Below are positions 3,188 through 43,415 of a DNA stretch of 53,468 nucleotides, in pieces (the first letter of the stretch is position 1; each line of letters begins with the position of its first letter). Both the position numbers and the translations under genes were made by a program. This DNA is from Phycisphaerae bacterium (GTDB lineage: Bacteria; Planctomycetota; Phycisphaerae; Sedimentisphaerales; Anaerohalosphaeraceae): contig JAAYVQ010000268.1 of assembly GCA_012517095.1 (NCBI GenBank), positions 1 through 53,468 on the forward strand. Direction: 5' to 3'. Under the pieces are notes generated by a model that was not told the DNA's origin, made no database searches, and saw only the letters and a program-made list of their open reading frames with translations.

Positions 3188-4244
3188 GCGTCCGCCTTGT
3201 CCACCTCGTTTTCAATCGATCAAGCGGTGGCATTCGCAACAATCCATTCGGGGCATACAACATAATTACAATCAGAATAACCGCAAAAACCGCATCGTCA
3301 TAAGTCCCGAATATGCCTCGTAACGACAGGAAATTCAGCACGATGCCCATCACCATGACTCCCCACAGGTTCGCCATTCCTCCCACCGCGACGATGACCA
3401 CATACCGGACTGATTTCATGACCGTCGCCTCCGACGGGCCGATGCTGCCGTTGTAATGCGTCATGAGGATACCGCCGATAGCGGCGAGAATCGCGCTAAA
3501 GACAAAGGTGGCCAGTTTGTACCGGTACGTGTTGACACCCAGCGAATGGGCCGCCTCTTCATTTTCATGAATGGATCGTAGCGCGCGACCGACGCGGGAA
3601 TGAACGAGTTGAGTTGCCAGAAGCATCATTCCTAACAGGACGACCCATGCGATATAGTAACTTTCCACGCGGAAGGCGGCACGACCATTCACTTCCAACC
3701 CGAAACCCAGCGAAAACGGGGGGACATTTGAAATGCCGTCCGCCTGGCCGAAGAGTTTGGCCCCGATGACGATTCGATAGACAATCAGGCCGAATCCCAA
3801 TGTCGCCATGGCCAGATAATGACCTTTAAGACGGATGACCGGAAGTCCAATCAAAATCGCGATGAGGGCGGTCAGGACCAGGGCCGCCGCACATCCGGCC
3901 CACGAGGAGAACGAAACCATATCGGTTCCGTAGATATCTTTCCAGGGGTGGAGCAATCCCAGGGGACGAAGGGCGGCGATCAGGGTACTGTGTTGGTACG
4001 GCGCAAGATTGATGGTGCACAAGACGGCGGACACATACCCGCCGATGGCAAAGAAACCCGCATGGCCCAGGGAGGCCTGCCCGGCATATCCCATCAATAA
4101 ACACAGTCCTACGACCACCATTGCGTAAAATACCGACATGGTGATCTGCGTCATATAGTAGGTGGCTTCAGTCGCAGACAAGACCAGTTGAGTTGCAACG
4201 ACGATGGCCGCGACGGCAAGAATGGGAAAGTACCGCCGCATCAT
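3180..4244 (-). CDS. livM: branched-chain amino acid ABC transporter permease (LivM-like)
   Basis: Polytopic membrane protein with GQASLGHAGFFAIGGY and HENEEAA motifs typical of LivM. It overlaps livG by 8 nt. Confidence 0.85.
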   Translation of the reverse strand: MMRRYFPILAVAAIVVATQLVLSATEATYYMTQITMSVFYAMVVVGLCLLMGYAGQASLGHAGFFAIGGYVSAVLCTINLAPYQHSTLIAALRPLGLLHPWKDIYGTDMVSFSSWAGCAAALVLTALIAILIGLPVIRLKGHYLAMATLGFGLIVYRIVIGAKLFGQADGISNVPPFSLGFGLEVNGRAAFRVESYYIAWVVLLGMMLLATQLVHSRVGRALRSIHENEEAAHSLGVNTYRYKLATFVFSAILAAIGGILMTHYNGSIGPSEATVMKSVRYVVIVAVGGMANLWGVMVMGIVLNFLSLRGIFGTYDDAVFAVILIVIMLYAPNGLLRMPPLDRLKTRWTRRTHE

Positions 4245-13412: not shown

Positions 13413-13440
13413 GTTGAAACATCAGTAGGAGTATGTAGTT

Positions 13441-13680
13441 ATGTCGATTGATCGTTCATTGAAAGTTCGCGGAGCGCTGACGCGTCACCGGAATGTTCTG
13501 TCCCGGGCTGAGAGGATCGATGCCCTCAAGCTACTGGAGAAGTGGTCCGAAGGCGACAAAGTGACGGGTCTGGTGAAAGTCGGCCATCGCAAGAGTCACA
13601 GCGGCAAGAAAGCCGCCGAGAAGAAACCGACGGCCGAAGGCGCCGCCGCAGAGGCCAAACCCGAAGCCCCCGCGAAATAG
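13441..13680 (+). CDS. small basic protein (PVC-type 'small basic protein' family)
   Basis: 79 aa and very basic. The N-terminus MSIDRSLKVRGALTRHRNVLSRAERI matches my memory of the small basic protein family annotated in Planctomycetes/Verrucomicrobia. AGGAG lies upstream. Confidence 0.55.
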   Translation: MSIDRSLKVRGALTRHRNVLSRAERIDALKLLEKWSEGDKVTGLVKVGHRKSHSGKKAAEKKPTAEGAAAEAKPEAPAK

Positions 13681-13701
13681 TAGAATCAACTTCGATTTTT
13701 C

Positions 13702-13746
13702 GGGCCGTTATGGGAAACCCGTGTTGCCCGTAGCGGCCCTTATTTG
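13702..13746 (+). terminator. intrinsic terminator candidate after the small basic protein gene
   Basis: 13-bp stem (13702-13714 with 13727-13739, including 2 GU pairs), 12-nt loop, then TTATTTGTGTG. Confidence 0.45.
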
Positions 13747-26720: not shown

Positions 26721-28277
26721 ATGAACAACCAATCGCTGGAAAACAAACTGGTCCCGATACCGGATCGCCGGGAAATGCTCTGCGCCGAGACGCCGGGTGG
26801 GCCGTGTGGAGTGGTGGTCTTCGGGGCGTCGGGGGATCTGGCGAAACGAAAGTTGTACGGTAGTTTATTTGAATTATACCGGAGACGGTTACTCAACGAT
26901 CGATTTTATTGTGTCGGATGCGGACGAACGGCGCTGACGAACGAGGCCTTTCGTGAAATGGTGAGCCAGTCCCTGGGGAATCGGGACTCGGAGGAGGTAC
27001 GGAAATTCGTTGATCGATTTTCGTATCTGAGCGGCGATTACTCCGATCCCGTGTTGTATCAGGGCCTGCGAACGGCGATGACAGAGGCCGACCGCCGCTG
27101 GTCGGTTTCCGGGCGACGGATATTTTATTTATCGGTTCCGCCAACCTTGTATGAGACGATTGCCAATGCGCTGGGAAGTTCGAGTTTGGCACAACCAGCG
27201 GTAACGCCCGATCCCGAAGCGCCAATCTTAATTCTCGAAAAGCCGTTTGGCCGAGACCTGGATTCGGCGATTGGCCTCAATTCCGTCTTGCGGCGGCATT
27301 TCGAGGAATCGCAGATTTACCGAATTGACCACTATCTTGGTAAAGAGACGGTACAGAATATTTTAATGTTCCGATTTGCCAACGCGATCTTTGAGCCGAT
27401 CTGGAATCGTAACTATATCCAACAGGTTCAGATCACGATCGCTGAAACGGTGGGCGTTGAACATCGCAGCGGTTACTACGACCAGACCGGGGCGATGCGC
27501 GACATGTTTCAAAACCACATGCTGGGAATGCTGGCGCTGGTGGCGATGGAACCGCCGGTGGCGTTTGCGGCCGAGGCGATCCGCGACGAGCGAGTCAAGC
27601 TGCTGCGAAGCGTTCGCCCCATGCGCTGCCAACCCTGGGCCACGGACATCGTTCGCGGGCAATACGGTTCGGGCGCAATCGATGGGCAACCCGTATCCGG
27701 TTATCGGCAGGAGCCGGATATCGGGAAAGACTCGCGAACGGAGACCTTTGTCGCGGCCCGTGCGTGGATTGACAACTGGCGATGGAAGGATGTACCGTTC
27801 TTTATGCGAACGGGGAAACGAATGTCCCGAAAGGTGACCGAGATTGCGATCGCTTTCCGGCCGGTGCCGCATTCAATGTTCGCGTCGGTGGGGCTGGACA
27901 ATCTGCCACCGAATGTGCTGGTGTTAAAGATCCAGCCGCAGGAGGGGATCCGAATGAGCTTTCAGGCCAAGCGCCCGGGCTCGAAGGTTTGTATGAGCAC
28001 ATTGTCGCTGGATTTCACCTATCGGGATTTGTTTGGCGCCGAAGCTCCCGAATCCTATCAGAGATTGTTGCTGGATGCGATGACGGGAGATCCGACATTG
28101 TTTCTGCGTCAGGATGACATTGAGGTGGCCTGGTCGCTGGTGACGCCGATCCTTCGGGCTTGGGAGAACGACGCGTCGATTCCGGCCGAATATCCGGCGG
28201 GTGCGGAATCATTTCCGGATGCCGATGCGATGATTCACGGCTCCGGGTTCGGATGGCGGAGATTATCCGAAATGTGA
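26721..28277 (+). CDS. zwf: glucose-6-phosphate dehydrogenase
   Basis: VVFGASGDLAKRKL NADP motif, RIDHYLGKE active-site motif, and the MFQNH..Q region. Confidence 0.92.
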   Translation: MNNQSLENKLVPIPDRREMLCAETPGGPCGVVVFGASGDLAKRKLYGSLFELYRRRLLNDRFYCVGCGRTALTNEAFREMVSQSLGNRDSEEVRKFVDRFSYLSGDYSDPVLYQGLRTAMTEADRRWSVSGRRIFYLSVPPTLYETIANALGSSSLAQPAVTPDPEAPILILEKPFGRDLDSAIGLNSVLRRHFEESQIYRIDHYLGKETVQNILMFRFANAIFEPIWNRNYIQQVQITIAETVGVEHRSGYYDQTGAMRDMFQNHMLGMLALVAMEPPVAFAAEAIRDERVKLLRSVRPMRCQPWATDIVRGQYGSGAIDGQPVSGYRQEPDIGKDSRTETFVAARAWIDNWRWKDVPFFMRTGKRMSRKVTEIAIAFRPVPHSMFASVGLDNLPPNVLVLKIQPQEGIRMSFQAKRPGSKVCMSTLSLDFTYRDLFGAEAPESYQRLLLDAMTGDPTLFLRQDDIEVAWSLVTPILRAWENDASIPAEYPAGAESFPDADAMIHGSGFGWRRLSEM

Positions 28278-28289
28278 AAGAGGAAAGGT

Positions 28290-28883
28290 TTAGTAGATGA
28301 TCGCGGTTGCTTCTTCGATGGTGCGAATGACTTCCTGAATGTCACCGGCATTGGGTACGGCCCCGTCGAATCCTTTTTTAAGAAGGGCGGTGATTTCGGT
28401 TTCACCGAGCCGATTGGCGACGGCGATAATCTTGGCGGCGTTCAGATCGTCGCTTGCCCGGACATATTGGCAGATATGGGCGGCATCGATATCCTTGGCC
28501 ATCAGGTTAATCAGGATCACATGGGGCAGGAGCTTTTGGGCCACCAGACCGGCGTCGAAACTGTTTTCGGCGACTTGGATCTCGTAGTCCTTTCTGTCTT
28601 TGAGCTGAGCGGCCAGTCCGGAGGCGGCCGCGGAATTACTATCGATGATCATCACCCGGGTTCGACCCATTTCCAGGGCGTCGGTCGGAATCGAATGGGC
28701 CTTCATGAAACGAATCAGTTCCCCGGTCGGGATACGGCGATCCCGCGAGCCGGGAATGCGATATCCCTTGAGTTGCCCGCTGTCAAACCATTTGGTCACG
28801 GTCCGCGGAGCCACATTGCAGATTTGAGCAACTTGTCCGGTAGTTAATACGTCTTTGCGTTTATTCATGGCTGGTACCTGCAT
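28290..28883 (-). CDS. DNA-binding protein: N-terminal excisionase/MerR-type HTH plus a C-terminal degenerate receiver-like domain
   Basis: LTTGQVAQICNVAPRTVTKWFDSGQLKGYRIPGSRDRRI is an HTH_17-like motif. The C-terminal ~120 aa have a CheY-like beta/alpha periodicity (RVMIIDSN..., HVILINLM..., KIIAVAN...), but the canonical phospho-acceptor position reads N. Confidence 0.65.
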   Translation of the reverse strand: MQVPAMNKRKDVLTTGQVAQICNVAPRTVTKWFDSGQLKGYRIPGSRDRRIPTGELIRFMKAHSIPTDALEMGRTRVMIIDSNSAAASGLAAQLKDRKDYEIQVAENSFDAGLVAQKLLPHVILINLMAKDIDAAHICQYVRASDDLNAAKIIAVANRLGETEITALLKKGFDGAVPNAGDIQEVIRTIEEATAIIY

Positions 28884-28993
28884 CCCGACAAATTCCAGTC
28901 AAATATCATCCATAATACCGTCCGGCCCGGATAGGGCCCGATCCTGTTTTCTCATCGTCCCCTTACTTGGGGGAATTAACCTGTGGATCCCCA

Positions 28994-29090
28994 ATTTTTA
29001 TAAATTCTCAACCCTATTCCCATGGAAATAGTATGGAAATATGCCGATTTTTATAGGTCCCGGAATGGGAATTCCGAATCAAACCCGAAT
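28994..29090. repeat. cluster of short phased direct repeats in an AT-rich control region
   Basis: ATGGAAATA at 29022-29030 and 29033-29041 (11-nt period); ATTTTTATA at 28994-29002 and 29047-29055; CCGAAT at 29074-29079 and 29085-29090 (11-nt period); GGAAT at 29062 and 29068. Confidence 0.4.
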
Positions 29091-29107
29091 TCTGTTTACA
29101 TTTCCTC

Positions 29108-29136
29108 TTGACCTTGGTCGATCCTTATGATAGAAA
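29108..29136 (+). promoter_or_regulatory. weak sigma70-like promoter candidate driving the long rny leader
   Basis: TTGACC (29108-29113), 17-nt spacer, TAGAAA (29131-29136). Confidence 0.25.
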
Positions 29137-29142
29137 GACGAA

Positions 29143-29656
29143 TGAACAAGTATCACCGTGGTGCAGGTGGTCGGGATGAACGGGAATCGAGTACCGTTTT
29201 CCGGCCAACAGAAGTCCAGCCCCGCGTGGGCAAATAGGTGTTTAACGCTTCAAGGACGCCGACTGCACCGGCAAGGGCGAAAGGCAATGGATGGTTTATC
29301 CGCAGGGGCAGTGATGTATATACGCTCCGATGGTTGCGGATGGGTGCATCATTCAACATTGCCAAGTCCAAGATTGCCTGTGTGTCGGCGGGTATTGGGA
29401 TCGAACCAGACAACAGGGTCCAGACAGAACAGTAGCATGAGTCAAGGAAACGGCACATCCAAAACCGGGATCCGCATGATAAAACCCCTTTTCTGCGGAC
29501 ATTCCCTGCGGTTGCCCCGGACGGGGTTCGCAGATATGCCGGGTTCCTGACTTTCGTTCATGGATCGATCCGTCATCCGATAAGCGAATTTCGCCGGGTC
29601 TTCTGCCAATCCCTGGCACCATCGTGGTCTATAGATCATGAGAAAGGGTTTGTCAG
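29143..29656 (+). other. candidate structured RNA: long 5' leader of rny or an independent ncRNA (unclassified)
   Basis: There is no credible ORF here. Several nested helices can be drawn by hand (see findings). I saw no match to RNase P, tmRNA, SRP RNA or the riboswitch consensus motifs I know. Confidence 0.3.
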
Positions 29657-31252
29657 ATGCCGGGTATCATTTCATTTCCCATTCTCGGCCTCAGCGGGCC
29701 GATCACGGTCGGAATCGCCGTCGTCGCGCTTGCCGTCGGGATTGTAGTCACCTTTATTATCCAGAAAACCATTGCAGGAAACAAATTGCTGGCCGCTGAA
29801 AACGAGGCCAAAAACCGCATCGAAGTGGCCAATCGTCAGGCCGAGAACATCGTCAAAGAGGCCCAACTCAATGCCGCCAACGAATTTCTCAAGAAGAAGG
29901 AGAAATTCACCGCCGAAATGGAGACCGCCCAGGGAGAACTGCTGAACCTGGAGCGGCGTCTCAGTAAGCGCGAAGACACCCTGGATCGGCAGGGAGAATT
30001 GCTCAATCAGAAGGAAAAACAACTCCGTGACAGCGAACGGGAACTGGAGCAAAAGCACCAATCCAATGATGCCAAGGCCAAACACTTGGCCAATCTGATC
30101 GCACAGCAGAAGAATCAGTTGCTGAAAATCTCCAATCTGGATGTCGAACAGGCCAAGGAGATGCTGCTCAAACGGCTGGAAGAGGAATGCGATCGTGACA
30201 TGAGTAAGCTCATCGAGCGTAAGCTGGAGCAGGCCAACGAGATCAGCGAGGAAAAGAGCCGCGAGATCATCAGCTTGGCGATCCAGCGATATGCGGCCGA
30301 ACAGACCTGTGAAATCTCGGTTTCGATGGTCGATATTCCCAACGACGAGATGAAGGGTCGTATTATCGGACGAGAAGGACGAAACATTCGGGCTTTCGAA
30401 AAGGCCACCGGCGTTGATGTGATCGTGGATGATACTCCGGGAGTGATTGTGTTAAGCGGATTTAATCCGATCCGTCGGGAGACGGCTCGTCTGAGCATGG
30501 AGCGGCTGATCCAGGATGGAAGGATTCACCCCTCGCGCATTGAGGAACTGGTCGCACAAACCAAAAAAGATGTCCACGCCAAAGTCCAGCAAATGGGTAA
30601 AGAGGCGGCCACCGAGGTTGATGTTCGGGGCCTCAATAACAAGATCGTGGGCATGCTCGGTGCGTTACACTATCGTACCAGCTATGGTCAGAATGTCCTG
30701 AGGCACAGCGTCGAGGTGGCGTTTCTGGCGCAGGTGATGGCCGACGAACTGGGTCTGGACGGCTCGATGGCCAAACGGGCAGGACTCTTGCACGATATCG
30801 GTAAGGCGATGGACCGCGAGGTAGAAGGCGGACACCCGGCGATCGGGGCGAACTACCTGAAACGCTTCAAAGAGCCGCAGATTGTCATTAACGCTGCCGA
30901 AGCTCATCACGGCGACATTCCCGCGGATAATCCCTACACTCCTCTCATCGCGGCGGCCGACGCCATCAGCGCGTCCCGGCCGGGTGCGCGTCGCGAAACC
31001 CTCGAACGCTATATCAAGCGGTTGGAAAAACTCGAAGAGATAGCCAACAGCTTCAAGGGCGTCGAGTCCTGCTACGCGATTCAGGCCGGACGGGAGGTCC
31101 GGGTCATTGTGGACGCCAACAAGGTCGATGACGGCAGCGCCGCCACGGTCGCCCGAGACATCGCCAAGAAGATCGAGGAAGAAATGACCTATCCGGGCGA
31201 GATCAAGGTGACCCTGCTGCGGGAGTTGCGTTGCATCGAATATGCCAGATAG
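29657..31252 (+). CDS. rny: ribonuclease Y
   Basis: N-terminal TM helix, long Glu/Lys coiled coil, KH domain ([19 protein letters not shown]), HD domain (LLHDIGKA...EAHHGD). Confidence 0.92.
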
Positions 31253-31276: not shown

Positions 31277-32125
31277 ATGAAGGTCAAAGTGCTGTGTATC
31301 GGCGACATCGTCGGCCGCCCGGGACGATATATCCTGTCCCAGGTGCTGAAAGAGCAGATTCGTCAGCGTTCCATCGACTGCGTGATTGCCAATGCGGAAA
31401 ATGCCGCCGGCGGGTCGGGGATTACGGCGCAAATCTACGACAAGCTGCTCAAATACGGCGTCCATCTGGTGACCCTGGGCGATCATGCTTATCGCAAACG
31501 CGAGATCATCTCCACGCTGGAATCGGCCGGGAATATCGTCCGACCCGCAAACCTGTCACCGGGCGCGGCAGGCCGCGACTATGCCGTCTATCAGACGGCG
31601 AAAGGTCCCCGGGTGGCGGTGGTGTGTTTGATCGGCCGCATCTTCATGAAGCCCGCCGACTGCCCCTATGCCAAGATCGACTCGTTGCTGATGAAGCTGC
31701 AAAACGAAGCGGATCTTGTCTTCGTCGAGATGCACGCCGAGGCCAGCAGCGAAAAAATTGCACTGGGATATTATCTCGACGGCAAAGTCGCGTGTGTCTA
31801 TGGGACGCATACCCATGTAGTCACTGCCGACGAACGAATCCTGCCGAAGGGTACGGCCGCTATTACCGATATCGGGATGACCGGCAGCCATGATTCGGTG
31901 CTCGGCCGCAAAACGGAAAATGTCATTCGGGCCTTTCGCACGCAGATGCCATATCCGTTTGAAGTGGCAACCGACGATCTCCGAATCAGTGCCATCGAAG
32001 TCACCTATGATACCCAGACCCGTCGGGCCGAACGAATCGAACGACTGCAGATCTGCGAATCGTCACACGAACTGGCTGGCTACGATAGTGACGACGGCCG
32101 TCCGGAGTATTACGCGGAGTACTGA
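31277..32125 (+). CDS. ymdB: YmdB-type metallophosphoesterase (TIGR00282 family, 2',3'-cyclic-nucleotide phosphodiesterase)
   Basis: MKVLCIGDIVGRPGR, ANAENAAGG.GIT, GDH, HAE.SSEK, GTHTHV.TADERILP.GTA.ITD.GMTG motifs. rny-ymdB synteny as in Bacillus. Confidence 0.88.
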   Translation: MKVKVLCIGDIVGRPGRYILSQVLKEQIRQRSIDCVIANAENAAGGSGITAQIYDKLLKYGVHLVTLGDHAYRKREIISTLESAGNIVRPANLSPGAAGRDYAVYQTAKGPRVAVVCLIGRIFMKPADCPYAKIDSLLMKLQNEADLVFVEMHAEASSEKIALGYYLDGKVACVYGTHTHVVTADERILPKGTAAITDIGMTGSHDSVLGRKTENVIRAFRTQMPYPFEVATDDLRISAIEVTYDTQTRRAERIERLQICESSHELAGYDSDDGRPEYYAEY

Positions 32126-39305: not shown

Positions 39306-39328
39306 TGTAACGATCTTCGGTCCAAAGA

Positions 39329-40129
39329 ATGGATGTCAAGACTCACAATCCGATCGAGATCACGGACGCCGTTGGCCACTTGCCGTACCGCATCGCTTTG
39401 GCCGGCGGGTGGATCGATCAGCCCTTCGTGTCGCGTTACAATCCCGATCCGCCGGGTTCGATGGTGGTCGTCGGTGTCGTCCCGCAGTTTCGATTCATGG
39501 ACCGATCCGGCATCTGCAGCAGTACCCGCGAGATCGCGATGAAGCTTTGGAAAGGCCGTTTGCCGGACGGCAATCCGGATAATCTGGTCCGCCAGCTCTA
39601 CGCCGCCGAAAACGACGGCAGGGCGGATCCTTCCGGCTCGCAGGACATGATCGGCCTGGTTTATCCGGGCATTAATCGGCTGGATTACGATTTCGCTTTC
39701 GAAGGCGGCGTATTTCCGAGGCATATCGAATCATGCAACAATCCGGCCGTAGCGGAGTGGCTGCAGAAGCATCTGCACATCCTGCCGGTAGCGCCGCGAC
39801 CCGATGGTTACAGTCCGCTTGGCCGAAGGAATCTGGACCCCCGGTGGATCGCCCGGCTGGGACGGTCCGGCCGCGATTGTTACGACTCCATCGTCCAGCG
39901 AAATCTGACGGAATTCGGCCGCTCAATGAACGAATGTATGCTCTGCTGGCAGATGATCCTGCCCGACACAGTCGATCACACGACCCTGACGGTCGATCTG
40001 GCGGGACTGCTGAAGGCCTATCAATCGCGATATCCCGGGGCCATGTATTCCGGTTGCGGCGGCGGCTATCTGTTGGTCGCCTCCGAACAACCGATCCCCG
40101 GTTCCTTCAAAGTCCAGATACGAGTGTGA
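39329..40129 (+). CDS. GHMP-kinase-superfamily protein, fucokinase/HddA-like
   Basis: Motif I-like PYRIALAGGWIDQP, a degenerate motif II (DRSGICSSTREIA), a QD-containing loop (PSGSQDMIGLVYPG) and motif III-like GAMYSGCGGGYLLV. Confidence 0.6.
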   Translation: MDVKTHNPIEITDAVGHLPYRIALAGGWIDQPFVSRYNPDPPGSMVVVGVVPQFRFMDRSGICSSTREIAMKLWKGRLPDGNPDNLVRQLYAAENDGRADPSGSQDMIGLVYPGINRLDYDFAFEGGVFPRHIESCNNPAVAEWLQKHLHILPVAPRPDGYSPLGRRNLDPRWIARLGRSGRDCYDSIVQRNLTEFGRSMNECMLCWQMILPDTVDHTTLTVDLAGLLKAYQSRYPGAMYSGCGGGYLLVASEQPIPGSFKVQIRV

Positions 40130-42954: not shown

Positions 42955-42960
42955 ACAAAA

Positions 42961-43383
42961 TCAGCCGCCGCTGTCGGCCTTTTTACGGGAATCGAGGAAC
43001 GCCTGCAGGAAGGCCGCGGCGGCGATGGCGTCCAGTCGTTTTTTCTTTTTCCCCCGCGTCAGCTCCATCGCGCCGAGTTTGTTTTCGGCGTCGAAGCTGC
43101 TAAGCCGCTCGTCGAAGAATTCCACCGCGATGCCCAGTCGCTGGTGCAACAATCCGCCGAAGGTCCGGACCTCCGCGGCCTGCGGACCCTCCGTTCCGTC
43201 CATATTCAGCGGCAGGCCCAGCACGATCGCCCCAATCTTTTCGCGTGCAATCGTCTGCTGGATGCGTTCGATCAGGTCGGTCGTTCCCTCCACAACCGCC
43301 AGAGGCGAGGCCATCGACTCACCCTCGTCGCAGACGGCCAAACCCGTTCGTTTCCGACCATAATCGACCGCTAAATACCGCAT
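42961..43383 (-). CDS. ruvX: Holliday junction resolvase-like / pre-16S rRNA nuclease RuvX (YqgF)
   Basis: MRYLAVDYGRKRTGLAV start, ...GLPLNMDGTEG, DERLSS motifs. The longest ORF (to 43494) adds a non-homologous extension. Confidence 0.85.
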   Translation of the reverse strand: MRYLAVDYGRKRTGLAVCDEGESMASPLAVVEGTTDLIERIQQTIAREKIGAIVLGLPLNMDGTEGPQAAEVRTFGGLLHQRLGIAVEFFDERLSSFDAENKLGAMELTRGKKKKRLDAIAAAAFLQAFLDSRKKADSGG

Positions 43384-43415
43384 GTTATCGCTCAATACCT
43401 TTGAACGGGTTACCG

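Follow-up and report, generated by a model that had tools for sequence, protein, structure and literature searches.

The stretch of DNA analysed here (the window) comprises 53,468 nucleotides (nt) of contig JAAYVQ010000268.1 from a bacterium of the Phycisphaerae, and its longest gap poor in open reading frames (ORFs) lies directly upstream of rny, the gene for RNase Y. Coordinates follow the window numbering throughout, and the plus strand is the sense of rny. The gap extends over 773 nt (28884-29656), or 788 nt with the start of the preceding gene at 28868; the runner-up gaps measure 461 and 427 nt, with a median of 36 nt over all gaps, in agreement with an earlier note, made from the sequence alone, which had called this the longest noncoding stretch. 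It is followed by rny (29657-31252, plus strand), which encodes a product of 531 amino acids with RNase_Y_N, KH and HD domains and is the putative regulated gene, and preceded by a divergent gene (28290-28868, minus strand) whose product matches the Pfam HTH_17 and receiver domains of a regulator and which lies outside the RNA. The segment 29143-29656 is predicted to encode a structured plus-strand RNA, described below.

A conserved RNA core and its linkage to rny

A blastn comparison of the gap with 80 rny loci returned one relative only, L015, whose RNase Y is also the closest to that of the window (86% identical, the next group reaching 70-80%); by these RNase Y relatives the window is placed close to Sedimentisphaerales/Anaerohalosphaeraceae. 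In the alignment of the two, the promoter and a block at approximately 29228-29405 are conserved, and the 3' half is essentially unalignable. The other members required nhmmer and then a covariance model. Weak collinear matches upstream of rny in eight further genomes were obtained with nhmmer and revealed a common motif; R1, a covariance model for which 10 sequences served as the seed, then matched all 16 of the closest rny loci, seven of them outside the seed, always on the rny strand and 250-470 nt upstream of the gene. Within the window R1 has a single match. The motif is also present, with 70 bits, at the RNase Y locus L190 of 'Anaerohalosphaeraceae bacterium U12dextr'. A pattern scan of metagenome contigs, blind to gene context, yielded 80 loci, 44 of which were matched by R1. 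A second covariance model (R2), made from metagenome sequences only and independent of the window, recovered the window copy with 57.9 bits (E = 1.7e-10). Neither R1 nor R2 matched any of the 64 more distant rny loci from Planctomycetota.

The core so defined (29244-29401, plus strand; 87.8 bits with R1) is an irregular hairpin, 100-160 nt long in the family, with the consensus 5'-AAAGYUWCAAGAAC-[P1 CAYCGR]-[P2, variable]-[P3 SGGC]-GANA-[P4 hairpin]-RA-[GUCS]-[P2']-[P1' YCGGUG]-AAU-3'. In the window it consists of P1 and P2 (29257-29274 with 29374-29390), P3 (GGGC 29275-29278 with GUCC 29366-29369), an internal loop of GAAA (29279-29282) opposite AA (29364-29365) and P4 (29283-29289 with 29357-29363). 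An extension of P4 by 75 nt is found in the window and L015 only, and this clade-specific hairpin (29290-29350) carries compensatory changes in L015. In P3 the pairs G-C, G-U and C-G, which stand beside the GANA/RA internal loop, are invariant, the G-U being present in 17/17 and 40/40 sequences. Because this G-U, which would read C-A on the opposite strand, is invariant, the sense of the RNA is that of the plus strand. When sequence rules were applied by hand, the GANA/RA loop fitted neither a K-turn nor the 11-nt receptor.

In two model-derived alignments, 87.7% and 86.8% of the cells of the core helices were paired, as compared with approximately 70% after shuffling and 28-41% when the partners were slid. 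Pairs changed on both sides numbered 19/25 and 18/25, respectively, and the covariation score was 0.47 versus 0.06-0.10 with slid partners. Among the members P4 has been replaced wholesale (GGCAA/UUGCC, GAGAA/UUCUC, GGUGG/CCACC). The alignments were fitted to the model and are hence biased towards it; the conclusion of covariation is nevertheless safe in view of the controls with slid partners and of the many helices that have been replaced in full. The comparison of the rny-upstream regions of relatives, which the earlier note had put forward as a check, thus brought out a conserved core with strong covariation.

Searches with Rfam 15 gave no match at the gathering score across the whole window, the gap included, none with permissive filters (E<=10) between 28700 and 29800, and none in 12 homologous loci; by the Rfam 15 models the segment does not belong to RNase P, tmRNA, SRP RNA, 6S RNA, the riboswitches, rne5, rne-II, OLE, GOLLD, ROOL or raiA. 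The statement of the earlier note that RNase P, tmRNA, SRP RNA and the riboswitch consensuses could not be fitted is borne out by the lack of a match even at E<=10. Judged by these comparisons, the core is a new RNA family, which on the loci searched is confined to a single branch of the Phycisphaerae (Planctomycetota), that of the Sedimentisphaerales/Anaerohalosphaeraceae. The record titles of five member loci (L007, JBHJNC010000123.1; L002; L005; L008; L015) say Gimesia maris, Pirellulales or Planctomycetaceae, and their RNase Y and leader motif are those of Sedimentisphaerales-like Phycisphaerae; the discordant titles are probably due to mis-binning or coarse taxonomy labels.

A protein gene was also considered. 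The ORFs of the gap showed no match to Pfam, four ORFs having been compared at E<=0.1 (no blastx-type search of large protein databases was made), and the comparison for a protein gene or pseudogene gave neither a conserved frame nor a Pfam homologue. Relative to the window, the central DNA of L015 is conserved yet carries frame-breaking 1-nt insertions or deletions; because these interrupt conserved DNA, the central part of the gap is noncoding. This includes the two overlapping ORFs which the earlier note had reported, and which do exist. With RNAfold the plus strand of 29137-29660 was more stable than expected (z = -2.92, with none of 100 shuffled sequences equally stable), as opposed to z = -0.36 for the minus strand of the same segment. 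Chance helices, of which the earlier note had warned, are thus a poor explanation of the plus-strand fold.

Upstream of the core a putative sigma70-type promoter was recognized at 29108-29136 (plus strand), with a -35 element TTGACC (29108-29113), a 17-nt spacer and an extended -10 element TGaTAGAAA (29128-29136), from which transcription is predicted to start at approximately 29143-29145. In nearly all members of the family a promoter of the form CTTGACY-N16/17-TATGAT is located 83-132 nt upstream of the core, the -10 element of the window clade being TAGAAA or TAGATA. The interval between the core and rny was without a comparable promoter-like site in 38/39 leaders. Because the promoter is conserved upstream of the core and no promoter-like site intervenes, a 5' leader of approximately 510 nt (29143-29656, plus strand) is predicted for rny, distinguished by strand-specific folding and by one closed, nested multi-helix structure; the transcript from approximately 29143 would be continuous into rny. 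Such a transcript had been drawn from the same TTGACC-17-TAGAAA element in the earlier note, and the family-wide conservation of the promoter speaks for it. On the plus strand no terminator-like site was seen in 28200-30000, a weak test in view of the poor definition of planctomycete terminators. A stand-alone noncoding RNA would have its own 3' end before the next gene; here the helices reach to within 27 nt of the ATG.

The Shine-Dalgarno (SD) sequence of rny, GAAAGGG, is located at 29642-29648 (plus strand), and the arrangement GGAAAGG-N7-9-ATG is conserved in all members. Wherever at least approximately 300 nt of downstream sequence is present, the 3' end of the core lies 228-305 nt from the start codon (255 nt in the window), and a conserved SD and start codon also follow the core in several matches near contig ends; the other matches are truncated short of this position. 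Of the 44 metagenome matches, 31 could be shown by tblastn to have rny on the same strand, and the other 13 lie at contig ends. In every match the core stands on the rny strand, and none has another gene downstream. The regulator gene is found upstream in most loci and is absent in a distant subgroup, where the core still precedes rny. Because the upstream neighbour changes in this subgroup, it is rny and not the regulator gene to which the motif is tied. We propose to define an rny leader of the Sedimentisphaerales by a core 228-305 nt before the ATG, on the same strand and 3' of a CTTGACY promoter, and the window copy fits this definition. The suggestion of a large structured plus-sense RNA leading into rny, made in the earlier note, is accordingly upheld by a covarying structure that was found ahead of rny only.

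Long-range helices and the ribosome-binding site

The leaders of the window and L015 adopt the same nested architecture in independent minimum free energy (MFE) folds, despite their unalignable 3' halves. The outermost closing helix, H1, pairs 29149-29167 with 29612-29630 (3480-3504 with 3950-3975 in L015). It comprises 17 base pairs (bp) with a mean pair probability (P) of 0.35 in the window, and 22 bp with P 0.97 in L015; when GUGGUGCAGG/CCUGgCACCA of the window is read by hand against GUGGUACAAG/CUUGUACuCAC of L015, two G-C to A-U double substitutions are found. Within H1 stands a 5' hairpin (29168-29207; 14 bp and P 0.92 in the MFE fold), which has an equivalent in L015 and for which RNAalifold of the two sequences gave four compensatory pairs. 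It is followed by H2 (29209-29217 with 29597-29605; P 0.57 in the window), which in L015 (3542-3550 with 3935-3943) is formed by CAGAAGGAG/UUCCUUCUG with 9 bp and P 0.94. Compared with CAGAAGUCC/GGUCUUCUG of the window, H2 of L015 has double substitutions in two pairs and a G-C in place of the U-U mismatch.

Next to H2 lies a small GCCC/GGGC hairpin (29219-29231; 3551-3566 in L015). The conserved 5' flank of the core (..GGUGUUUAACGCUUCAAGGA) enters helix P-alpha (29237-29256 with 29576-29595; 3570-3589 with 3916-3934 in L015), and the 3' flank enters P-beta (29398-29408 with 29561-29571; 3730-3737 with 3905-3912 in L015). P-alpha is weak in the window, where it consists of three short helices with P of approximately 0.5; it is a 17-bp helix in L015 and has 11-16 bp in most other lineages. 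P-beta has 10 bp in the MFE fold (P 0.87), and its counterpart in L015, GGAUCGGA/UCUGAUCC, is equally far from the ATG. Together with P1, the two helices are predicted to form a three-way junction that carries the core. P-beta encloses an inner domain (29409-29560), also present in L015, which contains a helix (29439-29459 with 29533-29553) and two hairpins (29467-29506 and 29507-29532); its P values in the MFE fold are 0.90-0.96 and its sequence is not conserved. The 3' strands of the long-range helices are thereby gathered in 29561-29630, in the order P-beta (29561-29571), P-alpha (29576-29595), H2 (29597-29605) and H1 (29612-29630).

Several of these helices had been drawn in the earlier note, and all the sequences quoted there are present at their coordinates. 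Its H1 (TGGTGCAGG 29159-29167 with CCTGGCACCA 29612-29621) is contained in the present H1, its H2 (CAGAAGTCC 29209-29217 with GGTCTTCTG 29597-29605) is identical in position, and its 13-bp hairpin (29169-29206) corresponds to the 5' hairpin; all three are part of the MFE structure of the window and recur at the same relative positions in the independent L015 fold with compensatory substitutions. The GGAC-loop hairpin (CCCCGGACGGGG 29515-29526) was recovered within hairpin 29507-29532 of the inner domain. Two further helices, H3 (CCGCAGGGG 29300-29308 with TCCCTGCGG 29503-29511) and H4 (TGCGGAT 29335-29341 with ATCCGCA 29470-29476), had to be rejected. Both are in conflict with the local P4-extension hairpin, whose pairing is preserved in L015 by compensatory changes and which all other members lack; H3 and H4 are possible only in the two species with the P4 insertion, where they rest on repeated AUCCGCA/UGCGGA words. 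The model of a leader with nested outer helices thus stands without H3 and H4, and it had overlooked the conserved core and the SD-sequestering hairpin described below. The word AUCCGCA occurs at 29294-29300 and 29470-29476, and UGCGGA-type words at 29335-29340, 29494-29499 and 29507-29511, giving several rival pairings of 7-9 bp, H3 and H4 among them; without comparative support, they may represent alternative or tertiary contacts peculiar to the species of the window.

Pairing partners were also compared through region-limited duplex energies, in which the own partner of each leader was set against non-self and reversed partners (23 lineage representatives or clusters among 47 leaders). The own duplexes gave -23.6 kcal/mol for P-alpha, -29.7 kcal/mol for P-beta and -33.0 kcal/mol for the outer helix, versus -17.5, -21.5 and -28.7 kcal/mol, respectively, for reversed partners, and the median ranks of the own partners were 3/23, 2/23 and 7/23; reversed-control duplexes had median ranks of 20-24/47. 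For the window itself the own partner ranked first of 47 for P-beta, second of 47 for the outer helices (-37.9 kcal/mol versus a row mean of -28.0, one non-self partner being better) and 24/47 for P-alpha. Cluster-wise RNAalifold of full leaders showed P-alpha and P-beta recurring, along with an outer helix that pairs the 5' segment with the region at ATG-44 to -67 or with the SD. The three-way junction and the nested long-range helices are supported, though indirectly. As modelled, H1 and H2 of the window clade would pair the 5' end of the transcript with a segment 27-60 nt upstream of the start codon.

The same segment may take part in an alternative hairpin (29593-29665, plus strand) that would sequester the SD and AUG by pairing UCUG (29602-29605) with CAGA (29654-29657) and CCCU (29611-29614) with AGGG (29645-29648). 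Its bases are those which otherwise supply the 3' strands of H1 and H2, and it therefore excludes both helices. The fold of 29590-29672 has an energy of -31.5 kcal/mol and z = -3.21, none of 200 shuffled sequences being as stable. When the last 83-108 nt of other leaders were folded alone, the values were -27.2 kcal/mol and z = -3.35 in L015, -28.2 and -2.43 in L004, -20.8 and -2.18 in L009, -31.4 and -1.75 in L040, and -30.2 and -0.37 in L013, so that z lies between -1.8 and -3.4 in five of six lineages. The SD-AUG region pairs best with a site at ATG-95 to -47 in approximately 33 of 47 leaders, with duplexes of up to 19 bp, and this anti-SD site coincides with the segment that provides the 3' strands of the long-range helices. 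The own partners of the SD region outrank non-self partners (median rank 2 across 23 lineages versus 12 in the control), and the anti-SD strand therefore co-varies with the variable SD-AUG spacer. Full-length MFE folds fall into two groups of lineages, one with the outer helix formed and the SD mostly free, the other without outer helix and with the SD heavily paired. The probabilities of 0.35 and 0.57 for H1 and H2 of the window would match two nearly iso-energetic, mutually exclusive states. The competing SD hairpin, too, is supported indirectly, and per-sequence folding and partner co-variation suggest a switch between the two states.

Neighbouring genes and other regions upstream of rny

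Directly 3' of rny is a ymdB-like metallophosphoesterase gene (31277-32125, plus strand; PF13277, E = 6.7e-97), with which rny is probably co-transcribed. The same gene order is found in the relatives L187, L189 and L190, and the rny-ymdB pair is known from Bacillus subtilis as well. The regulator gene upstream of the leader starts at ATG 28868 (MNKRKD.., 192 amino acids) in the gene calls of L015 and of the identical contig L189, neither of which uses the start at 28883 of a longer ORF of 197 amino acids. Between this gene and the leader promoter are direct repeats with 11-nt spacing (ATGGAAAT at 29022 and 29033; CCGAAT at 29074 and 29085) and a GGAATTCC palindrome at 29068-29075; the repeats and palindrome at 29022-29040 and 29068-29090 are only partly conserved in L015 and could be sites for the neighbouring helix-turn-helix (HTH)/receiver regulator. 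A small GC-rich hairpin at 28924-28939 (GGCCCGGATAGGGCCC), kept in L015 as AGCCCGGAAAGGGCCC, lies on the minus strand within what is probably the 5' untranslated region (UTR) of that regulator gene. The next-longest ORF-free gaps of the window, 42955-43415 (461 nt), 39306-39732 (427 nt) and 13413-13743 (331 nt), are without an Rfam match at the gathering score.

Many clades of Planctomycetota that lack the motif have gaps of 450-900 nt upstream of rny, and in some of them blocks of 48-58 nt with 80-85% identity are shared at similar distances from the gene: at approximately 3575-3631 in L034 and 3603-3659 in L043, at approximately 240-340 nt upstream of rny in L072 and L073, and at approximately 480-570 nt upstream in L064 and L080. 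Other lineages may have different rny leaders. As homologues of the present leader, short conserved blocks of distant Planctomycetota were rejected, since they are unrelated or coding sequence. In the Tepidisphaerales (L016, L018, L020 and L021) a conserved block approximately 310-395 nt upstream of rny resembles the start of a small ORF (ATGAACGTGGCATTTCTTGGAGTTTTC.., MNVAFLGVF..) and looks like a gene for a small hydrophobic protein rather than an RNA element.

Interpretation and significance of the rny leader

We consider it probable that the gap contains a promoter and an rny leader of approximately 510 nt, which would represent an undescribed family of cis-acting structured RNA and a likely switch for the control of RNase Y. 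By analogy with known systems, feedback control of RNase Y is its most likely role. The closed long-range fold would leave the ribosome site free and bury the 5' end, and RNase Y itself or a partner protein would recognise or cleave the conserved core. With the 5' half lost or unfolded, the 3' strands would be released onto the SD, which a local hairpin would then close; the 5' end would lose its protective helix, and synthesis of RNase Y would drop, a negative feedback. RNase Y or a partner is proposed as the trigger by analogy only. It is favoured because the core accompanies rny only, because the invariant G-U helix and the purine loop have the appearance of a protein site, and because the logic resembles that of the RNase E 5' UTR. 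Protein recognition is typically marked by an invariant G-U beside G-C pairs where a junction and a purine-rich loop are close by.

A number of observations weigh against this interpretation. The start of transcription, its continuity into rny and the regulation are all deduced from sequence, and RNase Y is tied to the core only through the analogy with RNase E and the position of the gene. Phylogenetic clustering of the sequences renders the p-values optimistic. For P-alpha the column-wise test, made on a sequence-only alignment, was marginal (69.3% paired versus 66.5% shuffled and 47% slid; covariation score 0.204 versus 0.177). In the MFE folds of 20 lineages the outermost closing helix was not significant (p = 0.42, with a bimodal distribution). 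H1 and H2 are supported by one other species only, L015, and the strain-level contigs of the window and of L015 have identical leaders, which add no covariation for these helices. Finally, RNAalifold gave no consensus for the SD hairpin from a poor family-wide MAFFT alignment of the last 93 nt of 30 leaders.

The anatomy just described, a covarying conserved core together with mutually exclusive pairings that share the anti-SD segment, is also that of translational riboswitches, and the junction and core might act as the aptamer of a ligand, either an ion or a small molecule, whose binding stabilises the long-range fold and thereby exposes or hides the SD. The clustering of conserved nucleotides at the internal loop and junction would suit an aptamer. 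Riboswitch classes, however, normally govern several transport or metabolic gene families, whereas the context-blind metagenome search found the motif ahead of rny only and no other downstream gene occurs among the matches; moreover, no known class matches, the motif has a narrow phylogenetic range, and a metabolite logic is not obvious for RNase Y. We therefore regard a riboswitch as unlikely. Somewhat lower stands the view of the leader as a passive 5' UTR, in which a paired 5' end shields the rny mRNA from 5'-end-dependent decay while translation is constitutive and nothing is sensed. The 5' end is indeed buried in H1 in both the window and L015, and by a crude estimate it seems common for rny of other Planctomycetota to have a leader of about this length, but a passive role fails to explain a near-invariant loop and G-U helix across lineages in which all stems have changed, or an alternative SD hairpin that co-varies.

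An independent trans-acting or housekeeping RNA, with its own promoter and 3' end and upstream of rny merely by position, would account for the conserved promoter and for a core far better conserved than the 250 nt which follow it. We hold it to be improbable, given that the window has no plus-strand terminator-like site between core and rny, that there is no second promoter, that the spacing to the ATG is constant and the linkage to rny absolute, and that the 3' strands of the helices reach the SD and co-vary with it. As for the absence of any functional RNA, the two overlapping ORFs could be taken for a decayed protein gene, the direct repeats upstream of the promoter could bind the neighbouring regulator as DNA-level sites, and the helices could be due to chance; this is scarcely credible in the face of frame-breaking indels in conserved DNA, the lack of a Pfam match, the strand-asymmetric folding and the compensatory base-pair changes across approximately 60 sequences.

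The proposed regulatory leader has its nearest counterpart in working in the 5' UTR of RNase E (rne5, RF00040; rne-II, RF01756), the classic example of feedback, although that enzyme is unrelated to RNase Y. The 5' UTR of E. coli RNase E is 361 nt long, and its stem-loop is reportedly the feedback sensor. Both are long structured 5' UTRs ahead of the main decay-initiating endoribonuclease, and each is best conserved in one stem-loop that bears an internal loop, co-transcription being predicted in the case of rny; the gene context is the same, and so is the proposed logic. They share no homology, the rny leader having no Rfam match and belonging to a different phylum; unlike the RNase E 5' UTR, it combines a three-way junction with nested long-range helices and with an alternative fold that would sequester the SD, and its feedback is conjectural. 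The pnp and rnc leaders, which mediate RNase III-dependent autoregulation, likewise place a ribonuclease gene after a long irregular hairpin, the cleavage of which would destabilise or silence the mRNA. The family is unrelated to that of rny, whose hairpin has a conserved asymmetric loop, is embedded in long-range helices and is known from sequence alone.

With translational riboswitches such as the thiM thiamine pyrophosphate riboswitch, the rny leader has in common a conserved junction or loop core and helices that exclude one another, the SD and AUG being hidden in one of them; it differs in its association with a single gene, in its much larger unit (approximately 350-490 nt) and in matching no Rfam class. 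OLE, GOLLD, ROOL and raiA RNAs are similar in size and number of helices, have a narrow range and were found by comparative genomics, but they stand alone, whereas the rny leader is predicted to be continuous with the mRNA and to pair with its ribosome-binding site; none of their covariance models matches it. Ribosomal-protein leaders that mimic rRNA sites (such as the S15 site, with a three-way junction and G-U/G-C pairs) may be alike in the invariant G-U beside G-C pairs, but the gene differs, rny not being a ribosomal-protein gene. In its working, then, the rny leader appears to resemble the autoregulatory leader of an RNase gene combined with a translational riboswitch platform, and it shares no sequence or structure with either. 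We know of no earlier report of such a family for rny.

In many Gram-positive bacteria, as in several other phyla, RNase Y is the endonuclease that initiates decay, and to our knowledge it is not understood how cells set its level. A leader of approximately 500 nt with a defined core and an SD switch would provide an object that can be mutated in the study of RNase Y feedback. It would add a sizeable new family of structured RNA from the poorly studied Planctomycetota, and its long-range helices, of a kind (more than 400 nt) which is uncommon within bacterial 5' UTRs when conserved, would be useful cases for structure prediction and co-transcriptional folding. More tentatively, the leader may be the first known sensor of RNase Y homeostasis, a riboregulator of approximately 350-490 nt whose junction core either serves RNase Y as a site of binding or cutting or responds to the status of RNA decay, and in which release of the anti-SD strand stops translation. 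If this were true, it would constitute a new class of large cis-acting RNA switch without a homologue in Rfam.

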